Shown: positions 416-10,847 of the stretch, piece by piece
How positions within the stretch are numbered: the stretch's first letter is position 1
Layout of the letters: each line of letters opens with the position of its first letter
Source: Candidatus Krumholzibacteriota bacterium
GTDB lineage: Bacteria; Krumholzibacteriota; Krumholzibacteriia; Krumholzibacteriales; Krumholzibacteriaceae
Assembly (NCBI GenBank): GCA_016926065.1
Contig: JAFGPI010000117.1
Location: forward strand, 1-10,847
Reading direction: 5' to 3'
Length of the DNA stretch: 10,847 nt
The notes under the pieces: model-generated
Databases searched by the model: none
The model's input: the letters and a program-made list of their open reading frames with translations, nothing else
What the model was told of the DNA's origin: nothing
Made by a program: the position numbers and the translations under genes

Positions 416-2386
416 ATGGTACAGGGTATAGTCTTGGGTGTTCTTTTCGTCGCCACTTTAATAGCGTTCGGTTTCATAGTACGAACGCTGATCCGGATCT
501 TGCTGCTGGGAAAACCTCAAGGCGGATTCCAGGATCACGGACGCAGGCTCTGGTCGGTTATCGTCTATGTCGCCGGACAGGCGAAAGTGCTCTCCCAGCT
601 GGCCGGCCTGGGACATTTCCTGATATTCTGGGGTTTCATCTTCATTACCCTGGGCACCCTCGAGCATATGCTCGGCATGATCATCCCCGGATTCAGCTAT
701 GCCGTCATATTCGGAGCGACGGTGGCCGGGGTGATCTCGCTGGTGCAGGATATTCTAGCCCTGCTGGTCCTCTTCGCCATCCTGGTCTCTTTCCACCGGC
801 GATTCATCCTCAAGCCGCTAAGGTTGAGGATAGATGATCCGGGGGCCAGGAACGAGGCGGTATTCATCCTGTCCCTGATCTTTATCCTTATCCTGCTCAT
901 GTTCTGCATAAAAGGGATCGGGATCATCAATGGAGAGATCGAGGGAGGGTACGCCCCGGTATCCAGGCTGGTGTCCGGACTGTTCGAGGAAAAGAATATC
1001 GATCTGCACCTGCTGGAATCCGTTCTCGCGTGGATTCATCATCTCATTATCTTCTTCTTTCTGCTGTACGTGCCCTTCTCCAAGCATATCCATATCCTGG
1101 GGGCCATACCGAACATCTACCTGCGCAACCTGGGCCCCGCCGGAACACTTTCGCGCATGGATTTCGAGGACGAATCGGCGGAGAAATTCGGGAACTCGGA
1201 GCTGCGCGATTTCACCTGGAAGCAGCTTCTGGACCTGTACGCCTGCACCGAATGCGGAAGGTGCCAGGCGGCCTGCCCGGCCTTTCTCACCGATAAGCCG
1301 CTCAGTCCCTTCCGGATGATTCACCGGATGAGAGGGCACCTGATGAGCGAGGGACGGGAATTGTTAAAGGCAAAAGAGGCCGAGGGAACCGCGATCATCC
1401 CCGGCACCATGACGGAGGATGAGATCTGGGCCTGCACCACCTGCGGCGCGTGTATGCAGGAATGCCCTCCCTTTATCGAGCACGTGCAGAAGATCGTCGA
1501 TCTGAGGCGGTACCTGGTGATGACGGAGAGCCGTTTCCCCTCGGAGATGCAGCCGGTTTTCAAAAATATGGAAGTCAATTACAATCCCTGGTCCCTGGGA
1601 TTTTCGGCCCGGGCCGACTGGGCCGAGGGTCTCGATATCCCCCTGGCGGCGGAAAAGAAGGAGTTCGATATCCTTTTCTGGGTAGGCTGCGCCGGTTCCT
1701 TCGATTCCCGGGGGCAGAACGTGAGCCGGGCGCTGGCCGGGCTGTTGAAAAAGGCGGGAGTCGATTTCGCCATCCTGGGAACGGAGGAAATGTGCTGCGG
1801 TGAAACCGCCCGCAGGATGGGGAACGAATATCTGGCCCAGACATTGATCGAGGCGAATATAGAGACGCTCAAGAAATATTCTTTCAACCGGATCCTCACT
1901 GCCTGCCCGCACGGATTGAACACCTTCCGGGTGGAGTATCCTCAATTCGGTTACCGGAAGCAGGTGGTGCATCATTCCGAGTTCCTCCTGGAACTGGTCG
2001 AGGCGGGGAGGCTGGAATTGGGATCGCGGGATAGTAAAAAGGTCGCCTATCACGATTCCTGCTACCTCGGCCGCTATAACGATATCCTGGCGCAACCCCG
2101 CGAACTGATCAGAAGGGTCGGGGGCATGAAGCTGAAGGAATTCGGGAGGAACCAGAAACGGTCCTTCTGCTGCGGTGCCGGGGGGGGACGGATGTGGATG
2201 GAGGAGGATATCGGAAAGCGAATCAACGAAGAGAGGGTGGATGAATCGCTCGGGCTCGGGGTCGAGGAAATATTCACCGCCTGTCCGTTCTGCCTGACGA
2301 TGTTCGAGGACGGATTCAAGGCGCGCGACGTGGACAAGATAAAGGTCCTGGATATCGCCGAGCTTATGGCCGAAGCCATTCGATAG
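416..2386 (+). CDS. Fused membrane cytochrome-b-like (NarI/DsrM/HdrE-type, 5-6 TM helices) plus HdrD/DsrK/GlpC-like iron-sulfur oxidoreductase with two CCG domains
   Basis: GGAGG at 407-411, 4 nt before ATG 416. The N-terminal ~230 aa are hydrophobic with several conserved His (HFLIFWGF, AWIHHLIIFFF, SKHIHILG). There are two 4Fe-4S ferredoxin motifs, CTECGRCQAACP and CTTCGACMQECP. Two CCG cysteine-rich domains follow: C-x-CCGETARRMG...ACPHG and SCYLG...FCCGAGGGRMW...ACPFC. Confidence 0.85.
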   Translation: MVQGIVLGVLFVATLIAFGFIVRTLIRILLLGKPQGGFQDHGRRLWSVIVYVAGQAKVLSQLAGLGHFLIFWGFIFITLGTLEHMLGMIIPGFSYAVIFGATVAGVISLVQDILALLVLFAILVSFHRRFILKPLRLRIDDPGARNEAVFILSLIFILILLMFCIKGIGIINGEIEGGYAPVSRLVSGLFEEKNIDLHLLESVLAWIHHLIIFFFLLYVPFSKHIHILGAIPNIYLRNLGPAGTLSRMDFEDESAEKFGNSELRDFTWKQLLDLYACTECGRCQAACPAFLTDKPLSPFRMIHRMRGHLMSEGRELLKAKEAEGTAIIPGTMTEDEIWACTTCGACMQECPPFIEHVQKIVDLRRYLVMTESRFPSEMQPVFKNMEVNYNPWSLGFSARADWAEGLDIPLAAEKKEFDILFWVGCAGSFDSRGQNVSRALAGLLKKAGVDFAILGTEEMCCGETARRMGNEYLAQTLIEANIETLKKYSFNRILTACPHGLNTFRVEYPQFGYRKQVVHHSEFLLELVEAGRLELGSRDSKKVAYHDSCYLGRYNDILAQPRELIRRVGGMKLKEFGRNQKRSFCCGAGGGRMWMEEDIGKRINEERVDESLGLGVEEIFTACPFCLTMFEDGFKARDVDKIKVLDIAELMAEAIR

Positions 2387-2514: not shown

Positions 2515-3357
2515 TTACACTCCCTTATCAACGGAGGAGGGCTCCGTCATGGTCTCGATGAGGCGGCTGGAGATATGAAAATCGCCCAGCAGGCTGGCCA
2601 GGGAGACCCCTTTGCGCAAGAAGGGAAATTCGATAAGCCGGGGAGGGGCGGCCGGCTCCAGCACCACGTTCTGTATTAAATCCCCGCACTGTTGAATGGC
2701 GTCGGGCAGGGTGGAGATGAATATGTAATCGATCAGGGAAACCGCGTCGGCGGCGTGCAGCACGCACCTCACCTGGTGACCGGGCTGGTTCAAGCGCGCT
2801 ATCCGGTAGGGAGGCTGCCTGCGGGTGAGCAGGTGGCCTACCTTGAGATTGGCCAGGGCGTTCCGGGAGTGGAAGGCCGGAACATAGATACGGAAGGCCC
2901 CGTAACTTTCTATCCTTTCCATCAGATGGTCGATCTCGCCACCGGAAGGGAGCAGCTTGGATTCTATCGTCTCATCGATGAGCCTGGTCCGTTTAACCTG
3001 GAAATCTATCCCCACCGTTTCCACGAAGGGTAATTCCGGTTCCGGCTTTTCCTTCTCCAGCCCGGTGGAGGCGATGATGCGGGTGGCGTCGGTCAGCCGG
3101 GTCAGGGAGCCGCGCATCAGGCTCCGGAGCTTGGCTCTATCTATTTCCACCACCCAGAAGGGAAGCCAGATCGTCTCTTCCGCCTCGCAGTCCGCTGCCT
3201 GGGCGCGGAAAACGGATACCGGGGCGAGTCCTTCCTCGGTTATGATCTGGTAGGAAAAACAGGTTCCGCATTGAAAGGTGACGAACTGTCCCCTAACCGG
3301 GAGTTCCGCTCCGCAGTTGATGCATTTCAGGGGACGCACCGTGATATCTCCGCTCAT
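2515..3357 (-). CDS. Soluble N-terminal zinc-ribbon protein (paralog D of the operon triplet), function unknown
   Basis: ATG directly abuts the stop of the upstream gene (TAG then ATG). SD GGAGGTGA sits 7 nt upstream inside the preceding gene. The N-terminus KCINCGAEL-x11-FQCGTCFS is a CxxC...CxxC zinc ribbon, then the WLPFWVVEIDRAKLRS motif shared with the two upstream genes. No TM segment. Confidence 0.7.
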   Translation of the reverse strand: MSGDITVRPLKCINCGAELPVRGQFVTFQCGTCFSYQIITEEGLAPVSVFRAQAADCEAEETIWLPFWVVEIDRAKLRSLMRGSLTRLTDATRIIASTGLEKEKPEPELPFVETVGIDFQVKRTRLIDETIESKLLPSGGEIDHLMERIESYGAFRIYVPAFHSRNALANLKVGHLLTRRQPPYRIARLNQPGHQVRCVLHAADAVSLIDYIFISTLPDAIQQCGDLIQNVVLEPAAPPRLIEFPFLRKGVSLASLLGDFHISSRLIETMTEPSSVDKGV

Positions 3358-4407
3358 CTACCATTCACCTCCGAACCAGTTCTCCAACCGGCAGGCCATC
3401 CACCGCAGGGGGGGGATGATCTCGCCGTTCTGAACCATGTCGAAAATATAAAGAGCCACCGCCGCTATCGGAACCAGGGGAAACCACGTCCCCGCCAGTA
3501 TCGCCCCCAGGGCCGGAACGAAAAAGAGAGAGCGGACGTTGATCTTTTTACGCAGCGGAAAGTCTCCCCGAATGACGTGGGCGTTGTTGCCGTCTATGGT
3601 GATGGAGTAGATTCTGCCTCCATGCCGGTAACGCAGTATGTACACCGGATAGTAATAGAGGGAGAGATCGTTGCCGAACAGCTTGAAGCGCTGACCGCGA
3701 ACCTTGGAGCCGGGGGGAAAGGTCAACCGGGAAAGATAATTGAATCCATCTTTTTCGGCGTTCTGCATCGGCTTCATGGCCAGGGCTATGGGGAGCTTCT
3801 TTTTCAGGTCGTGATTAAAGATATCCCAGTTGAGAAACTGGGTCTTCAGGGATATTCCCTGCAGGCCCAGATGGCGCAGCGCGCAGGCGGGGGTGCTCCA
3901 ATCGATCTCCTTGAAGATCAGCTTGGAGAAGGGATGATATTCCACCCGGTATGATTTCCGCACCTGGGGTCCGTCCGGTCCGGGAGCGACCACCTCGATC
4001 TCCCTTTTAAAGGCCTTTTCCCCGGCGGCCCATCCCACCAGCCGGCCGTGCATCCTCCAGAAGGGGACATGTATCAGCCGCAGGTCGAGAATGGAGGCGT
4101 GACGCGCCCTGATCCTCCCCTCGGTTTCGCGGGAGAGATAGTGCAGTGCCGCCAAACGGGCCTTTCCGGCGGTGATGGAGGGCTGTAGGATAAATGACCG
4201 GGCGCCCCGGGGCCGGTGGACGTAAAGGGCCGAATGGCAGTATTCGCAGCGCAGGCTCCGCTCTCCCTCGTGCAGGCGGAGGGAACCTCCACAGGTGGGG
4301 CAGCTGATACCGATCGTTTCGGATGATCCGCCGTTAAGGGTAGAGGCGGTGTCGTCCGCTTCCGGACCGATGGCTTCGGAAAGGGTGGTGGTCTCATTTC
4401 CGGCCAT
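3358..4407 (-). CDS. Zinc-ribbon protein with a C-terminal transmembrane anchor (paralog C), function unknown
   Basis: SD AAAGGA is 6 nt before ATG (complement of 4405-4407), which overlaps the upstream gene stop by 14 nt. The zinc ribbon is CPTCGGSL-x11-LRCEYCHS, followed by the IHVPFWRMHGRLVGW motif. The C-terminus is hydrophobic: LFFVPALGAILAGTWFPLVPIAAVALYIF. Confidence 0.7.
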   Translation of the reverse strand: MAGNETTTLSEAIGPEADDTASTLNGGSSETIGISCPTCGGSLRLHEGERSLRCEYCHSALYVHRPRGARSFILQPSITAGKARLAALHYLSRETEGRIRARHASILDLRLIHVPFWRMHGRLVGWAAGEKAFKREIEVVAPGPDGPQVRKSYRVEYHPFSKLIFKEIDWSTPACALRHLGLQGISLKTQFLNWDIFNHDLKKKLPIALAMKPMQNAEKDGFNYLSRLTFPPGSKVRGQRFKLFGNDLSLYYYPVYILRYRHGGRIYSITIDGNNAHVIRGDFPLRKKINVRSLFFVPALGAILAGTWFPLVPIAAVALYIFDMVQNGEIIPPLRWMACRLENWFGGEW

Positions 4408-5098
4408 GAGCTATCCTTTCGCGAACACTGTAGGCGGCAAAACCCAGGGAAGCGGCCGCCCCGATCACCAGGCAGCGTCCCACCCAGCCGTGATCCAATT
4501 TCCCCGCCAGCAGGTAAATGAGCAAAAGGGATAAAGCGGCCAGGATATTGGGGACGCTGAGGGGCGAGGGCCGGGGGGGAGGCAGCTCTTCCGCCTGGAT
4601 GTACAGGCTTTCTCCCAGCACCAATGCTTGCCAGTCCCTTCCGGCCGCCGTGTAGTTCAATCTATAAACCGGCAGGTGGAGCACCTTTTCGGTTTCCGCG
4701 GTAATATTATCGAAAGAAATTATCTTTTCCTCGCCAGCCAGGCTCTCGTCGAAGAAGCAATAATTTCCGGCGGGAGGAAAGGGAAGAGGCCCGGTGCGGT
4801 AAGTGATTCCCGGCGCCGGATAGGCCCTTACCCGTCCCTGCTCGTCCGGGCAGAGCAGATAGGGGAGATAAACAAATTCCACCTTTATGTCCCGGGGCCG
4901 GGCCAGCTTCTTGCCGGTCAGGAAAGATTGCAGGGCATACCGGGCGACCTTATCGTTTCGCTTATGCGGCAGGATCAGGTGCTCGGGTCCGCCTCCCTTT
5001 TCGATGGCCAGGGATGATCCGCAAAAGGAGCAGAAGAGCATCTTCTGCCCCGGGTATATCTCGTTGTCGCCGCCGCAGAGGCTGCATTTAACCTGCAT
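4394..5098 (-). CDS. Zinc-ribbon protein with two C-terminal TM helices (paralog B), function unknown
   Basis: SD AAGGAAG is 3-4 nt before ATG (complement of 5096-5098), which overlaps the SPFH gene stop by 11 nt. The N-terminus is [25 protein letters not shown], a CxxCGG...FCxxCGS zinc ribbon. The VYLPYLL motif follows. The C-terminal hydrophobic helices are [15 protein letters not shown] and [14 protein letters not shown]. Confidence 0.7.
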
Positions 5099-6245
5099 TG
5101 TCTTCCTTTTCCACCTTTTCGCCGCAGCCGGTGCAATATTTGGTTCCCGGGGGCAAAGTAGTCTGGCAATGCGGGCAGGTAAGCCCCGCCCCGAGTTTCT
5201 TGCCGCAGGCCGAGCAGAACTTCGCTTCCGGGGGCAACTCGGCCGCGCAGGACGGACAGCGGTTCATGGTGATCAGCTGGGTTCCGCAATTCTGGCAGAA
5301 ACGTGAATCGGCGATTACCTCGTTGTGGCACCGGGGACACCGGAGCATCTGCACGGTGGCGGTGGTCACGCCCGCTTGCCCCGTATCCACGCTGCGGGCC
5401 AGCATTCCCGGTATCATCATGCCCAGTCCGGCTCCCACTCCCACTCCCATTCCGCCGGCCGCGGCCGCGCCGGCCCCGCCTCCTCCGCCGGAAGAGGCGG
5501 CATCCCCCATGGCCTTGGCGGCCTTGAACTTGAAAAAATCGTCCAGGTTGCCGACCGCCTCCAGGCCGCTCCTTTCGTCGATCATCTTCTGGACCTCGGG
5601 AGGAGGAGTGATCGAGTTGATGAAGAAATCGCTCAACTCCATTCCGTACTTGGAAAAATCGCTTTTCAGGCGGTCCTTGATCTCGACGGCCAGTTCATCG
5701 TAGTACTGCGGCAGATCGAATATGGTATCCAGTTTCTCGCCGAACATATCGTTGATTCTGGCCACCACCACGTCCCGCAGGTATTCACCGATCATTTCGC
5801 TGGAATAAACGCCCTGGGTTCCCACCACCGTGTTGATGAAGAGCACCGGCTCGGTGATCTTGAAGGTGTAAATCCCGAAAGCCCGCAGCCTTACCAGGCC
5901 CAGCTTGCTGTCCTTGAAGGCCACCGGATCCTTGGTGCCCCACTTCTGGTTGAGGAACATCTTCATGTTGATGAAATAGACCTCCGCCCGGAAGGGGCTT
6001 TTAAATCCCCAGGGGAGGGCGAGGATTTTGGTCAGGATCGGCAGGTTCTTGGTGGTCAGGGTGTGCCTTCCGGCGCCGAAGATATCGAGCCCCTTGCCGT
6101 CCTTGAAAAACACGCTACATTGGTTATCGCGGACGATCAACTGGGCGCCCATTTTTATTTCCGCCGAACCCTCCTGGGGAATGCGGTGCGTGATCTCTTC
6201 TCCGCTTTCATCGAACCATTCCAGTACTTCCATGAATTGTGACAT
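5088..6245 (-). CDS. SPFH/Band-7 family protein (COG4260, 'virion core protein'-type SPFH, B. subtilis YdjI-like) with a Gly/Ala-rich linker and a C-terminal triple zinc ribbon
   Basis: SD AGGAGG (complement of 6250-6255) is 4 nt before the ATG. The N-terminus [45 protein letters not shown] and the [16 protein letters not shown] segment are characteristic of this SPFH subfamily. The linker is [27 protein letters not shown]. Three CPxC-x9-10-(F/Y)CxxCG repeats follow. Confidence 0.85.
5091..5339 (-). other. Triple tandem zinc-ribbon tail of the SPFH protein
   Basis: [44 protein letters not shown] and [22 protein letters not shown] are three ~22-aa repeats, each with four Cys. Confidence 0.75.
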
Positions 6246-6511
6246 GCCGCCTCCTGTCGTTATAATTCCCGGCCGGGTATTATTACCAAATTAAGCAAAA
6301 TCTTGTGGTTGCGTGGAACCATAGGTAAACGTGCAAAGTGAATGCCAATCGATGCCGTTTGGGGGAGATGGCGGACCGGTCGGGCTTTCTCCCCGCCGCC
6401 GAACGGAACGGTTGCTATAAGATGTTTATATTCAACTACTTCCACCGGGAGGGCCAGCTGAGGACCGGGGGCGGCCCGGATCGGTCGTAGAGAGAAGATG
6501 TCGGTCCACCG

Positions 6512-6668: not shown

Positions 6669-7892
6669 ATGGGAAACAAGGGCGTGCCGGTTATCATGTA
6701 TCACGGGGTAAGTCCCGGTCATCCCGGTTGGCTGTGGAACCATCTGCTCACCCCGGTGGAGGTGTTCGAGGCCCAGATGTCCCGGTTGCGGGAGGGGGAG
6801 TGGACCGCCATATCCCTGGCCCAACTGTATTCCCATATGTCCCGGAACGCTCCCCTGCCCGAAAAACCGATCGTGCTGACCTTCGACGACGGGTATCTGG
6901 ACAATTGGGTTTACGCCTACCCGATTCTGAAAAAGTACGGTCTCCAGGGAGTAATCTGGATGACCACCGACTTCATCGATCCGCGGCCCGATGCCCGTCC
7001 CAACCTGGATGACTACTGGAACGGCCGGGTGGCCCGGGGGGAGCTCCGGGGAGAGGGATTCCTGTCCCTGGCGGAAATGCGGAAGATGGTCTCCTCCGGA
7101 CATATCGAGATTCAGAGCCATGCCCGGACCCACACCTGGTATTTCCGCGGTCCCCGGATCGTGGATTTTCACCGGCCGAAAGGAGTGGATGGATACATAC
7201 CGCAGCCCTGGTTGGCCTGGAATGCCGCCCCCCAGAGAAAATTCGCCTATCTAGCCGAAGAGTACGAAACCCTGGTGCCCTATGGATCGCCCATCTACGA
7301 GAACGGAAAATCCCTCCAGGTGAAGAGGTATTTTGAGGATGAGGAGCTCACTCGGCTGCTGGTGGATCATGTGCGCCGGGAGGGAGGAGAGCGTTTTTTT
7401 CTCCGCCCGGGATGGCGTAAGGAACTGGAGAGGCTGGTGGCGGAAAATCCTCCCCGGGGCGGACGCCTGGAAAGCGAGGAGGAATACCGGCGGCGGGTCG
7501 AGGATGAATTGCAGGAATCCCGCCGGATCCTCTCCTCCTCCCTCGGCACCGAGGTGAATTTTCTGTGCTGGCCGGGAGCCGGGATCAATGACACCGCCCT
7601 GCGGCTGGCGTCCGAGGCGGGATATCTGGCCACCACCACCCATTATCTGGACCGGAAAAAGCGCAATTGTTTCGGCGAGAATCCCCGCGAGATCAACCGT
7701 ATCTACTGCGGCAGTCCCTGGTTCTGGAGGGGAAAAAGGATTACCGATCACACCGACCCCGGGTTTTTCCTAAGTACCGTGGAGGCCTTCCGGGGAAACC
7801 GGCTCGCCGCCTGGAAAACGCGTTTATTTAAATTTAAATATCTGGTACACTATTATCTCCTTGGGAGTAAAAATGAGATAGGAGTCCGTTGA
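6669..7892 (+). CDS. Polysaccharide deacetylase (NodB homology domain / CE4 family). It has no N-terminal signal peptide and is probably cytoplasmic
   Basis: The N-terminus VPVIMYHGV is the typical start of a NodB domain. The TFDDGY Asp-Asp motif and the H-A-R-T-H (HxxxH) metal-binding motif are present, and NFLCWPGAG is the C-terminal motif region. The gene ends in an ATGA overlap with the next gene. GGAG lies 9 nt upstream of ATG 6669. Confidence 0.8.
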   Translation: MGNKGVPVIMYHGVSPGHPGWLWNHLLTPVEVFEAQMSRLREGEWTAISLAQLYSHMSRNAPLPEKPIVLTFDDGYLDNWVYAYPILKKYGLQGVIWMTTDFIDPRPDARPNLDDYWNGRVARGELRGEGFLSLAEMRKMVSSGHIEIQSHARTHTWYFRGPRIVDFHRPKGVDGYIPQPWLAWNAAPQRKFAYLAEEYETLVPYGSPIYENGKSLQVKRYFEDEELTRLLVDHVRREGGERFFLRPGWRKELERLVAENPPRGGRLESEEEYRRRVEDELQESRRILSSSLGTEVNFLCWPGAGINDTALRLASEAGYLATTTHYLDRKKRNCFGENPREINRIYCGSPWFWRGKRITDHTDPGFFLSTVEAFRGNRLAAWKTRLFKFKYLVHYYLLGSKNEIGVR

Positions 7893-9616
7893 AAATGTTG
7901 CTGCCCCTTGCCCCGTCCCTGGTCAGAAATGTCATTTATCCGGTTTATAGAGGTTTGAGGGGGGACAAGCTGCTGCAGATCCTGCAGGAACTGGAGGAGA
8001 ACCAGTACCTTTCCCCGGAGGAACTGGAGGATATACAGTGGCGGAGGATGTCCGCCTTCCTTGAATATATCGCCAACCACGTTCCCTATTACAGGGAGCT
8101 TTTTGAGCAATCCGGCTGGAAGGCGGAAGATTTTCAGAATCCGACCGATCTGCTGCGGGTCCCTCTTCTGACCAAGGAGATTATCCGCCGGGAGGGAAAG
8201 AGCCTGGTCACCACCGATCCTCTCATCAAGGGGTACGACTCCAACACCGGAGGTTCAACCGGAGAGCCTCTCTATTTCAAGATAGCCAATTCCACCAGCC
8301 CCTACCGCCGGGCCAACACCCAGAGATGCTACCGCATGTGCGGGATAGAGATCGGGGAGAAGCAGGCCTATGTCTGGGGTTTTCCCTTCAATATTCCCCG
8401 GAAGGAGAAGATCAAGTCTTCCTTCCGGAATTATTTCAACAATATCACCTACCTCTCCTCTTTCAATATGTCGGAGCAGGCGATGCGCGACTACGCGCTC
8501 AAGTTAAAGAAATTCAAACCGGCGGTGGTTATCGGATATCCTTCCGCGGTGACCCTTTTCGCCGAATTCTGCCGGGATAATCAAATATCGGGGATCGAAC
8601 CCCGGGCGGTGATTTCCAGCGGGGAGAAAATGTATCCGCCCCAAAGGGAGGTGCTGGAGGAATTCTTCGGCTGCCCGGTCTTCGACCGCTACGGCAGCAA
8701 CGAATTCGCCAATGTGGCGCATGAATGCGACCGGCACAAGGGACTGCACGTTTTCAACGACCTGCTCTACGTGGAGGTGCTGCACGAGAACGGTAGGCCG
8801 GCCGGCCCCGGGGAAGTGGGGGAAATAGTAATAACCGATTTTCTTAACCGTTTCATGCCTTTCGTCAGGTACCGCACCGGGGACATGGCGGTTCAAACCG
8901 ACAGAACCTGTGAGTGCGGCCGGGGCCTGCCCCTGCTGGAACGGATCGAGGGTAGGACCTTCGATACGGTGATGACCAACGACGGAAGATTCATCGGCGG
9001 GTACTTCTGGACCTATCTTTCCCGGGTGGTCCCGGGAGTGAAGCAGTTCCAGGTCGAGCAGAAGCAGAGGAACACGGTGACCTTCCGGATCGTGCCGGGC
9101 CCGCAGTGGGAAGACCAATACCAGGAAAGGATAATAAAGGAAATAGTGGAGAACATGGGCCCGGGAACCAAGGTGAATTTCGAAAAGGTCGCCGAGATTC
9201 CCCTCTCCCCGGCCGGTAAATTCAGATTCATCCTTTCCAAGGTGGAAGAAAGGATGGTGGTGAAGTCGAAGATCCATAAGGCCAGCGTGACCGGCGAGGA
9301 CCGCGAGCGGATAGACTGCATTGTAGTGGATGAGGAAATTCTGGAATTGAGTAATATCGCTCCCTGCGAAAGAGTGCTGATAGTGGACAACGATAACGGC
9401 GCCCGGGTGGAAGCTTTCGTGGTGAAAGGAGAAAGGGGCAGCCAGGAGATAGTAACCTGCGGGGGGGTGGCCCAGCACATTCACGCCGGAGACGAGGTTA
9501 TCATCATGGCCTTTACCTGGTCGGAGGAAACCCACGGACACTTTACCAATATCCTGGTGGACGAATCGAACAAGTTCGTTCGCTACCTTACCGAAAAGGC
9601 GGGGGATAAAATATAG
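7889..9616 (+). CDS. PaaK/CapK/coenzyme-F390-synthetase-family adenylate-forming ligase (aa 1-455) fused to a C-terminal PanD-like double-psi beta-barrel domain (aa 456-575) that lacks the catalytic residues
   Basis: The N-terminus SPEELEDIQWRRMSAFLEYIANHVPYYRELFEQSGWKAEDFQNPTDLLRVPLLTKEII is typical of PaaK-like enzymes. GGSTGEPL is the phosphate-binding motif. The C-terminal 120 aa align gaplessly with the downstream PanD. The start overlaps the deacetylase stop (ATGA). Confidence 0.85.
   Translation: MKMLLPLAPSLVRNVIYPVYRGLRGDKLLQILQELEENQYLSPEELEDIQWRRMSAFLEYIANHVPYYRELFEQSGWKAEDFQNPTDLLRVPLLTKEIIRREGKSLVTTDPLIKGYDSNTGGSTGEPLYFKIANSTSPYRRANTQRCYRMCGIEIGEKQAYVWGFPFNIPRKEKIKSSFRNYFNNITYLSSFNMSEQAMRDYALKLKKFKPAVVIGYPSAVTLFAEFCRDNQISGIEPRAVISSGEKMYPPQREVLEEFFGCPVFDRYGSNEFANVAHECDRHKGLHVFNDLLYVEVLHENGRPAGPGEVGEIVITDFLNRFMPFVRYRTGDMAVQTDRTCECGRGLPLLERIEGRTFDTVMTNDGRFIGGYFWTYLSRVVPGVKQFQVEQKQRNTVTFRIVPGPQWEDQYQERIIKEIVENMGPGTKVNFEKVAEIPLSPAGKFRFILSKVEERMVVKSKIHKASVTGEDRERIDCIVVDEEILELSNIAPCERVLIVDNDNGARVEAFVVKGERGSQEIVTCGGVAQHIHAGDEVIIMAFTWSEETHGHFTNILVDESNKFVRYLTEKAGDKI
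9254..9613 (+). other. Degenerate aspartate 1-decarboxylase (PanD)-like domain inside the ligase ORF
   Basis: KSKIHKASVTGEDRERIDCIVVDEE...NGARVEAFVVKGERGS...GDEVIIMAF aligns without gaps over 84 positions to PanD at 9712-10071. The Gly-Ser pyruvoyl precursor pair is replaced by Asp-Cys, and the Tyr of TY(V/A)I is replaced by Phe (EAFVV). Confidence 0.75.
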
Positions 9617-9645
9617 ATGAAAAATGAGATTCCATGTGATATAAT
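9617..9645 (+). promoter_or_regulatory. Candidate internal promoter for panD with an extended -10 (TGaTATAAT) and a weak -35 (ATGAAA)
   Basis: TG at 9637-9638, one spacer base, then the perfect TATAAT at 9640-9645. ATGAAA at 9617-9622 gives a 17-nt spacer. It lies in the 95-bp gap between the ligase and panD. Confidence 0.35.
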
Positions 9646-9711: not shown

Positions 9712-10071
9712 ATGAAACGCCTATTATTGAAATCGATGATTCTCAGGGCTACCGTCACGCAGGCTGATATCCAGTATGTGGGAAGCATAACCATTGACGA
9801 GGATCTTATCGATCAAGCTAATCTCAGTGAGCATGAAAATGTGCATGTGGTCGACCGTACCAACGGCAAGAGGTTGGAAACCTACGTGATCAGGGGGGAA
9901 CGCGGTACCGGGGTTATCTGCATGAACGGCGCTGCCGCCCACCTGATCAACCAGGGTGACCAGGTCGATATCATGGCATTTTCCTGGTCCACCGGTAAGG
10001 CCAATCCCATATTCATTCAGGTCGATGAGAATAACCGGTTTCTTAGATGTCTGGATGAAAAGAGTCTTTAA
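9712..10071 (+). CDS. panD: Aspartate 1-decarboxylase (pyruvoyl-dependent), making beta-alanine from L-aspartate
   Basis: AGGAGG at 9699-9704, 7 nt before ATG. The sequence LKSMILRATVTQADIQYVGSITIDEDLID...NGKRLETYVIRGERGTGVICMNGAAAHLINQGDQVDIMAF keeps Lys9, the Gly24-Ser25 cleavage/pyruvoyl site, Arg54, Thr57 and Tyr58 equivalents of E. coli PanD. Length is 119 aa. Confidence 0.85.
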   Translation: MKRLLLKSMILRATVTQADIQYVGSITIDEDLIDQANLSEHENVHVVDRTNGKRLETYVIRGERGTGVICMNGAAAHLINQGDQVDIMAFSWSTGKANPIFIQVDENNRFLRCLDEKSL

Positions 10072-10109: not shown

Positions 10110-10847
10110 ATGTTTAACAGGAGTATTCGTCTGTTCCGCTTATGGGGAATTCCGGTGGAACTGAATATCAGCTGGGTATTGATCCTGATACTGGTCACCT
10201 GGACCTTCGCCACCAATTATTTTCCTCAGTACTACCCCGGCGTCTTTTCCCCTTCCCGGGCGTGGATTCTCTCTTTTTTCACGGCCCTGCTTTTATTTGT
10301 TTCGATACTGCTGCACGAGTTCAGCCATTCCCTGGTGGCGGTGCGCAGCGGCCTGCCGATCAATAAGATTACCCTGTTCATGTTCGGGGGGGTGGCGCAG
10401 ATGAGCCGGGAGGTGGATAATCCCTCGCTGGAGTTCCGCATGGCGGCCGCCGGTCCGTTGATGACGTTGCTGTTGATAATCGTCATGTATGCCCTGGGGA
10501 TCTTGCTGGGAAGGGTGATTTTTATGGCGGCGTTGTTGAAAACGGTAGCCAGCATCAACGCGGGTATCTTCCTGTTCAATATGTTTCCCGGATTTCCCCT
10601 GGACGGGGGAAGGATTCTCCGGGCCGTGCTATGGCGACGCCAAGGGAGCATTCTCCGCGCCACCAGGACCGCCAGCCGGATCGGGATCGTCTTCGCCTAC
10701 GGCCTGATTATTTTTGGCGCCCTGAATTTAATAATCACTCAAGAGGGGGTGGGGAACCTGTGGATGGTGCTGATCGGTTTTTTCCTGCGGCAGGCGGCCC
10801 GTACCAGCTACGATAGCGTTTTGTACCGATCCCTGCTGAAGAATCTC
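10110..10847 (+). CDS. Site-2 protease family zinc metalloprotease (peptidase M50), 3'-truncated by the window end
   Basis: AGGTGA is 6 nt before ATG 10110. Manual translation is open to the last base. RLFRLWGIPVELNISW is the typical M50 N-terminus, HEFSH is the HExxH zinc site, FNMFPGFPLDGGRIL is the LDG motif, and there are several TM helices. It is not in the ORF track because it is incomplete at the edge. Confidence 0.8.
   Translation, partial: MFNRSIRLFRLWGIPVELNISWVLILILVTWTFATNYFPQYYPGVFSPSRAWILSFFTALLLFVSILLHEFSHSLVAVRSGLPINKITLFMFGGVAQMSREVDNPSLEFRMAAAGPLMTLLLIIVMYALGILLGRVIFMAALLKTVASINAGIFLFNMFPGFPLDGGRILRAVLWRRQGSILRATRTASRIGIVFAYGLIIFGALNLIITQEGVGNLWMVLIGFFLRQAARTSYDSVLYRSLLKNL

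Follow-up and report, generated by a model that had tools for sequence, protein, structure and literature searches.

PanD, the aspartate 1-decarboxylase, is a homotetrameric self-processing enzyme and a drug target (pyrazinoic acid). Here we describe a bacterial locus that encodes two PanD-like polypeptides side by side, one of them fused to a ligase. The window, by which we mean the whole stretch of DNA analysed, covers 10,847 nucleotides of contig JAFGPI010000117.1 from a Candidatus Krumholzibacteriota bacterium. Its open reading frame list and Pfam matches (PF02261 and AMP-binding) place a fusion gene at 7889..9616 on the + strand, encoding a 575-residue protein in which a CapK/PaaK-type adenylate-forming ligase is followed by a C-terminal PanD-like domain, hereafter F. 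The ligase part comprises roughly residues 1–444 (7889..9220, + strand) and has intact adenylation motifs. F comprises residues 456–575 (9254..9616, + strand, stop codon included), and the translation of this interval begins MVVKSKIHKASVTGEDRERIDCIVVDEE. Between Lys444 of the ligase and F lies a short flexible linker (residues 441–456, 9209..9256, + strand), where the predicted local distance difference test score (pLDDT) of an AlphaFold2 model falls below 50 at residues 441–443 and 453–456 and the blocks within 441–460 average 60–64. The second PanD-like protein, hereafter S, is a stand-alone paralogue of 119 residues (9712..10071, + strand) whose gene starts 95 nt after the fusion gene.

The fusion has at least 119 orthologues, with identities of 46–75%. 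Databases label the fusion protein either 'aspartate 1-decarboxylase' or 'phenylacetate-CoA ligase', with equivalog-level support for neither, and S-type proteins carry a plain aspartate 1-decarboxylase annotation.

Active-site residues of the two PanD paralogues

F is a recognizable PanD domain. Residues 455–562 match Pfam PF02261 (Asp_decarbox) with E=1.2e-24 and 86.8 bits against a cut-off of 25, the domain matches the PanD structure 2c45 in the PDB with E=8.5e-16, and BLASTP against S gives 41% identity (E=2e-29) with one 1-residue gap distant from the key sites. Together with the Pfam match, a pLDDT of 92–96 across the domain supports the original prediction, made from the sequence alone, that the fold of F is retained. 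Against the equivalog model TIGR00223 (panD), F scores 73 bits where the cut-off is 106, and it therefore falls short of that level.

The register of F against PanD was taken from BLASTP, two MAFFT runs and one hmmalign run, all four of which agree, and residue numbering for F and S positions follows E. coli PanD throughout. BLASTP, MAFFT and hmmalign all pair YVGSITIDED of S with RIDCIVVDEE of F, and ETYVI with EAFVV, as first proposed. No alternative alignment puts Gly-Ser or Gly-Thr at the cleavage site; the sole Gly-Ser of F, within ERGSQE, is the canonical G65-S66. The position of Gly24-Ser25, where PanD is processed and the pyruvoyl group forms, is taken by Asp476-Cys477 (GAC TGC, 9314..9319, + strand). 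The segment 9404..9418 (+ strand) encodes Arg506 (Arg54, invariant), Val, Glu, Ala509 (Thr57 lost) and Phe510 (Tyr58 lost), the last two with codons GCT TTC at 9413..9418. The predicted replacement of Gly24-Ser25 and Tyr58 was upheld in a multiple alignment with PanDs and fusion orthologues, and is a family trait across the 119 orthologues: position 24 is Asp in 116 and Glu in 3, never Gly; position 25 is Cys in 86, Gly in 20 and Ser in 13 (72%, 17% and 11%); and position 58 is Phe in 107.

The losses extend beyond those originally listed. In the same 119 orthologues Tyr22 is lost, and Asn hardly ever occurs at position 72, which holds Cys, Ser, Gly or Thr; the window protein has Cys524 there (9458..9460, + strand). 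Thr57, which E. coli PanD needs for activation and the acyl shift (PMC3975893), is missing from the window copy as well; this puts the window copy in a minority, since position 57 is Thr in 107 orthologues, Ala in 7 and Ser in 4. Lacking Gly24-Ser25, Tyr22, Tyr58 and Asn72, F cannot, judged by its residues, be a self-sufficient PanD.

Three other PanD residues of F do not vary at all. Lys461, Ile462 and His463 are encoded at 9269..9277 (+ strand), Lys461 and His463 corresponding to Lys9 and His11 of PanD. Lys9, His11 and Arg54 are invariant in 119/119 database sequences and in 45/45 sequences from genomic loci, as is Lys7 (100%). The K461, H463 and R506 columns are likewise invariant in separate sets of 20 and 90 orthologues. 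The description of F as an inactive pseudo-enzyme therefore stands for its own catalytic centre, which is lost, but F is not simply an inert relic.

S departs from canonical PanD in the opposite way. It matches PF02261 with E=6e-40 and exceeds the TIGR00223 cut-off (124.8 bits against 106). It keeps the pyruvoyl machinery, namely Tyr22, Gly24-Ser25 (9781..9786), Thr57, Tyr58, Asn72 and Ala74-75. Its neighbour-facing face is altered, with Met9 (9736..9738), Leu11 (9742..9744) and Asp86 (9967..9969) instead of Lys9, His11 and Ile86, three residues listed as strictly conserved in aspartate decarboxylases (PMC3314653). S had served as the active PanD reference for the first comparison with F, but is itself not a canonical PanD.

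These features recur throughout the family. Tyr22, Gly24, Ser25, Arg54, Thr57, Tyr58, Asn72 and Ala74/75 are present in 40/40 S proteins encoded beside F, where position 9 is Met in 38 and Ala in 2, position 11 is Leu, Met, Ile, Val or Phe, and Asp86 occurs in 38/40. Across 120 S-type clusters Lys9 is found in 0/120 (Met 115, Val 4, Ile 1), His11 in 0/120 and Asp86 in 120/120; in the neighbours and clusters combined, Tyr22, Gly24, Ser25, Arg54, Thr57, Tyr58, Asn72 and His77 are all at 100%. We also ran an exhaustive HMMER scan with S and took the best 150 representatives of 50%-identity clusters among 1.84 billion proteins. Lys9 and His11 are both present in 147 of these 150 nearest PanD representatives, and the other 3 are S-type proteins with Asp86. 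By this comparison, the loss of Lys9 in S is exceptional.

F and S sequences from 47 related genomic loci (45 of F and 40 of S) were also aligned with canonical PanDs. An unbiased scan took in every column, 32 in all, whose conservation reaches 85% or more across 77 canonical representatives. Lys9 and His11 are the sole residues that S has lost and F keeps. Conversely, Ala18, Tyr22, Gly24, Ser25, Thr27, Tyr58, Ile60 and Asn72 are lost in F and kept in S. No column among the 32 is lost in both.

F and S are also neighbours by position. S lies downstream of F on the same strand in 39/47 loci, within 345 nt in 37 of them, and 4 of the other 8 loci end at a contig end. Counted over informative loci, F and S are adjacent in 37/43. 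A look-up starting from two S proteins found F directly upstream in 2/2. The metagenome-assembled genome (MAG) that contains locus L003, where S is present, has a further fusion copy at L005; some genomes thus carry two ligase::F paralogues, which might share one S.

The two paralogues have residues in common that are absent or in the minority in canonical PanD: Trp92 (95–100%), Met88, Phe90, Phe110 and Tyr113. A full neighbour-joining tree groups S with F, with a bootstrap of only 15% on a subsample. Given this value, we claim shared derived residues and no lineage-specific duplication.

Two MAG loci assigned to Nitrospirae / Nitrospira japonica, L038 (5989..8024) and L040 (5998..7698 and 11418..11774), hold less degenerate S/F pairs. 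F keeps Asn72 in both, has Asp-Ser at positions 24-25 in L038 and keeps Tyr58 in L040. The S proteins of these loci have Ala9 in place of Met9, and Ala or Thr in place of Asp86. The F and S genes overlap by 1 nt in L038; in L040 a GT4 glycosyltransferase gene and a deacetylase gene intervene. Such pairs may be evolutionary intermediates. A further protein from the representative search, P0152 (148 aa, stand-alone), combines F-like Lys9, His11, Asp24-Gly25 and Ser58 with S-like Asp86 and a C-terminal 'SSWSTG'; by its sequence, candidate explanations are a gene fragment, a recombinant and a third PanD-like type.

Interpretation of the pair

The sorting of residues between F and S gains meaning from the geometry of PanD, whose active sites sit between adjacent subunits (PMC6969166, PMC4410942). 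Substrate analogues touch Lys9* and Arg54* of the other subunit, whereas Pyr25, Thr57 and Tyr58 are listed unstarred, and Lys9* ion-pairs with the substrate alpha-carboxylate (PMC3314653). Seen from the Ala74/Ala75 backbone, Arg54* likewise belongs to the other side of the interface (PMC6969166), and in the T57V structure malonate bridges Lys9 and Arg54 (PMC3975893). Strands 2-14, 82-94 and 52-59 form the sheet described as the 'adjacent-subunit side' of the pocket (PMC11808261), and Lys9, His11, Ile86 and Arg54 lie on these strands. We refer to the pyruvoyl-bearing side as cis and to the adjacent-subunit side as trans. Our own observations are the residue patterns with their conservation, and the synteny; the subunit origin of each residue is taken from this literature.

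We propose that F and S are complementary, incomplete PanD paralogues that work as a heteromer, in which F is the trans half and tethers beta-alanine synthesis to a CapK-type ligase; we put the probability of this reading at roughly 55%. F and S would assemble into a mixed PanD-type ring. S, as the cis subunit, would supply the pyruvoyl group (Gly24-Ser25), Thr57, Tyr58, Asn72 and Ala74/75, while F, as the trans subunit, would supply Lys9 and Arg54 from the sheet that also bears His11 and Ile86. A complete aspartate-decarboxylase site would thereby be rebuilt at the S(cis)/F(trans) interface. At the reverse interface, Asp24-Cys25, Phe58 and Cys/Ser72 of F would face Met9, Leu11 and Asp86 of S in a dead, more hydrophobic pocket. 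This interface may simply hold the heteromer together, and Asp24 of F might occupy Arg54 of S. Crystallised E. coli PanD constructs bear 17-18 additional N-terminal residues, so N-terminal extensions are compatible with the usual PanD assembly.

F begins about 10 residues past Lys444 of the ligase, so that such a complex would place beta-alanine production on the ligase itself. The CapK/PaaK-type ligase would presumably attach the beta-alanine made directly on it to a sugar or glycan, within an operon that also encodes a glycosyltransferase and a deacetylase. The chemistry, as speculation, could join activated beta-alanine to a deacetylated amino sugar, or let an activated uronic acid react with beta-alanine as its amine acceptor. 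In its fullest form the proposal is an obligate heteromeric PanD in Krumholzibacteriota and related bacteria, in which beta-alanine is made only on the ligase and handed over to decorate an amino sugar or uronic acid of a surface glycan; we advance this version tentatively, and rate it somewhat below an even chance. Neither a PanD paralogue pair nor a ligase-PanD fusion turned up in a literature search. As part of the same reading, S/F might, as far as we found, be the first pyruvoyl aspartate decarboxylase with its active site split between two paralogues, a claim we hold with some reserve. Literature on beta-alanine-bearing polysaccharides and on CapK function yielded nothing usable, in support or in contradiction, and the proposed glycan product is accordingly speculative.

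Several points weigh against a split active site. That S and F physically associate is our inference, as are the composite catalysis, the channelling and the final product. S keeps Arg54 at 100% even though its trans face would serve no live site, and an extra assumption is then needed, either a contact between Asp24 of F and Arg54 of S or the existence of some S–S interfaces. F, for its part, keeps Thr57 (85–90%), Gly73 and Ala74 on the cis side, which may be structural, and Ile86 on the trans side in only about half of its sequences. For His11 and Ile86, strand geometry and a single engineering paper are the basis of the cis/trans assignment. At four loci (L004, L005, L022 and L035), the available 0.9–6 kb downstream of F contains no S. 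In the tree, the grouping of S and F as sisters lacks robust support. The non-overlap of lost columns, considered as a statistical argument, was dropped, as it is expected with P ~0.5 for 9 and 2 losses among 32 columns.

F could instead be purely a pseudo-enzyme that oligomerises the ligase through F–F contacts, or that senses aspartate, beta-alanine or a dicarboxylate through Lys9 and Arg54, leaving S as a self-sufficient and slightly unusual PanD. The fold is indeed kept at high model confidence with the cis catalytic residues gone, and S, which exceeds the NCBIfam panD cut-off, has all the residues for self-processing. The invariant Asp24 could moreover plug the Lys9*/Arg54* pocket at an F–F interface, which alone would explain the conservation of Lys9, His11 and Arg54. 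What this account leaves unexplained is the loss of Lys9 and His11 in S, unique to S-type proteins among the nearest 150 PanD clusters, and why such a loss occurs only beside a domain that keeps both. An S homotetramer is also expected to be a poor enzyme, because Lys9 ion-pairs with the substrate alpha-carboxylate (PMC3314653). We regard a pure pseudo-enzyme as unlikely. Alternatively, F could be a dead paralogue that activates S allosterically or aids cleavage at Gly24-Ser25, donating no catalytic side chains. Its parallels would be prozyme with trypanosome AdoMetDC and PanZ/PanM with E. coli PanD: there is precedent both for dead paralogues that activate a pyruvoyl enzyme (PMC5201418) and for an activating protein that binds PanD where its protomers meet (PMC4410942). 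Such a role would also fit the tight synteny. Allostery, on the other hand, requires no strict conservation of substrate-binding trans residues in F and does not predict their loss in S. This explanation, which we judge distinctly improbable, overlaps with the proposal that F completes the active site of S, and the sole difference is whether Lys9, His11 and Arg54 of F reach the substrate.

The Asp-Cys pair raises another option, in which F would have chemistry of its own: Cys477 would undergo an N-to-S acyl shift, leading to self-cleavage, to a Cys-derived pyruvoyl group or to a thioester for the ligase. Cys-derived pyruvoyl groups exist in D-proline reductase. In favour of reactivity at this site, chain B of PDB 1pyu is an E. 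coli PanD alpha chain that starts at Cys25, the cleaved form of an S25C protein. Ser-to-Cys alone is thus not inactivating, and the loss of function in F results from the whole set of substitutions. The Cys had originally been called conserved and linked to intein-like N-to-S chemistry. With Cys at only 72%, and Gly or Ser in the other 28% of orthologues, neither suggestion is supported; because of this limited conservation, the Cys at position 25 is not, on comparative grounds, an essential nucleophile. No invariant nucleophile is found at the scissile position in the 119 orthologues, as the Gly of 17% of them cannot serve. Conserved self-processing or intein-like chemistry is further argued against by the residue at position 24, which is acidic and never Gly, by the absence of Tyr22 and Asn72, by the free exchange of Cys for Gly, and by the Ala that replaces Thr57, needed for the acyl shift (PMC3975893), in the window protein. 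We consider chemistry of this kind very improbable.

Cys25 co-occurs with Cys72, in 36/86 of the Cys25 sequences against 4/33 of the others (Fisher p=0.002, without correction for phylogeny). In PanD, Asn72 hydrogen-bonds the Ser25 hydroxyl (PMC3975893). Cys477 and Cys524 of the window protein may form a lineage-specific disulfide or thiol pair in the dead pocket. A Cys25/Cys72 disulfide or metal site was rejected as a family mechanism, since the pair occurs in only 30% of orthologues and is a lineage feature.

The ligase part and the gene neighbourhood

The ligase part of the fusion has the ANL-type fold. It carries the STGGSTGEP P-loop, YGSxE, RYRTGD and GR...SGK, the last with Lys444, the catalytic A10 lysine; in 90 orthologues, columns G125, Y268, G269, R327, Y328, D332, G443 and K444 are invariant or nearly so. 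A phmmer search against the PDB matches the PaaK-family ligase BT_0428 (4r1l, E=5.5e-27), and Foldseek with the AlphaFold2 model, in which pLDDT is mostly above 90 for this part, returns PaaK-family ligases as best matches (4r1l/2y4o, E ~1e-27). The precomputed Pfam label of the C-terminal subdomain is PF27533, CapK_C. Phenylacetate-CoA ligase equivalog models are not reached (TIGR02155, 77.9 bits against a cut-off of 646; NF045666, 151 against 300), and the scores of all specific NCBIfam ligase models stay below their own cut-offs. The JGI label 'phenylacetate-CoA ligase' on the fusion is, by these scores, a family-level name only. Cys280, His287, Cys341 and Cys343 (window ~8726..8917) are invariant across the 90 orthologues and include a C-x-C-G motif (TCECGRG); they could form a structural metal site.

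The fusion gene belongs to a conserved gene order: an outer-membrane beta-barrel gene (in some cases), GT4 glycosyltransferase, CE4 deacetylase, ligase::F, S, and an M50/CBS protease. In the window, a CE4/PgaB-like polysaccharide deacetylase gene (6669..7892, + strand; Pfam PF01522, NCBIfam PgaB-like below cut-off) overlaps the start of the fusion gene, which begins with TTG and shares 4 nt with the deacetylase stop, so that the two are translationally coupled. A CE4 deacetylase lies directly upstream of F in most loci and is a conserved operon partner. The GT4 enzyme resembles those of PEP-CTERM systems and BshA-type enzymes, with scores below their cut-offs, and ligase homologues without a PanD domain also adjoin GT4 genes. 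Downstream of S, locus clusters identify a membrane protease gene of the M50 family (site-2 protease-like, HEFSH motif; 10110..10847, + strand) that is cut by the window end. This gene almost always comes next after S (at least 21 loci), and an orthologue has Pfam Peptidase_M50 and CBS domains.

Two promoter-like sites were found as consensus matches only. One, GTGACA-16-TATAAT (11/12; 6239..6266, + strand), lies upstream of the deacetylase gene and is a possible operon start in this genome. The other, ATGAAA-17-TATAAT with a TG (9617..9645, + strand), lies in the 95-nt spacer between F and S. An Rfam scan of the window gave no match.

Further upstream, the minus strand carries a four-gene cluster (2515..6245). 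Its first gene (5088..6245) encodes an SPFH/Band-7 protein that ends in three zinc ribbons. Next come 4394..5098, 3358..4407 and 2515..3357, each encoding a protein that begins with a zinc ribbon, the last of them without a Pfam match. The cluster is found again in front of the ligase operon of related loci, with the SPFH gene in 16 loci, the 4394..5098 gene in 10 and the 3358..4407 gene in 6. Finally, 416..2386 encodes a 656-residue membrane protein that carries 4Fe-4S dicluster motifs as well as two CCG cysteine-rich domains and is of the HdrD/DsrK/GlpC-like heterodisulfide-reductase type; it appears unconnected with F and S.

Comparison with known systems

If F and S do complete each other, nature has divided the interfacial active site of PanD into halves carried by separate genes. 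The pair would then be a clean bacterial case of complementary degeneration leading to an obligate enzyme/pseudo-enzyme pair, a process best documented so far in trypanosomatid polyamine enzymes. Hundreds of 'aspartate 1-decarboxylase' entries would be mis-described, as the 573-aa fusions would not be decarboxylases alone and the small S-type proteins probably would not be either. A dedicated beta-alanine supply would be tied to CapK-type ligases and glycan modification, which would open the chemistry of this ligase family, and the cell-surface biology of uncultivated Krumholzibacteriota, Latescibacterota and Eisenbacteria, to experiment.

Canonical PanD (E. coli, M. tuberculosis; PF02261, TIGR00223) belongs to the same domain family as F and S and presumably shares their interfacial active-site geometry. 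It is a homotetramer in which each chain holds both halves of the site, whereas here the halves are split over two paralogues, one of them fused to a ligase. The S25C mutant of E. coli PanD (PDB 1pyu) has Cys25 like F, but it keeps Gly24, Tyr22, Thr57, Tyr58 and Asn72 and is cleaved; F lacks Gly24, Tyr22, Tyr58 and Asn72, with Thr57 kept in most orthologues though not in the window copy. On the ligase side, PaaK/CapK enzymes (BT_0428 4r1l, PaaK1/2, NatL2, AjiA1) have fold and motifs in common with the N-terminal 440 residues of the fusion, as well as the CapK_C subdomain. Unlike the fusion, none of the solved members has a PanD-like domain.

A second protein at PanD protomer interfaces already controls activity or maturation in the PanD-PanZ/PanM system (PMC4410942, PMC3496974). 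PanZ differs from F in having a GNAT fold and in being no PanD paralogue; it occurs in some Gammaproteobacteria only and supplies no Lys9 or Arg54. F, by comparison, has the hallmarks of a dead paralogue: it is paralogous to S (41% identity), lacks the pyruvoyl site and consistently co-occurs with S as a neighbouring gene. By analogy, the closest mechanistic counterparts of the pair appear to be two trypanosomatid systems. Deoxyhypusine synthase (PMC3663545) is a heterotetramer of an impaired and a dead paralogue whose activity needs the heteromer, but it belongs to an unrelated NAD-dependent family and has neither a fusion nor a pyruvoyl cofactor. AdoMetDC/prozyme (PMC5201418, PMC6221367) is, like the proposed S/F enzyme, a pyruvoyl decarboxylase active only as a heteromer with a dead paralogue. 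Its fold is unrelated and its subunits are eukaryotic and unfused, and prozyme relieves autoinhibition and donates no substrate-binding residues, whereas F would contribute Lys9 and Arg54 to the site itself.

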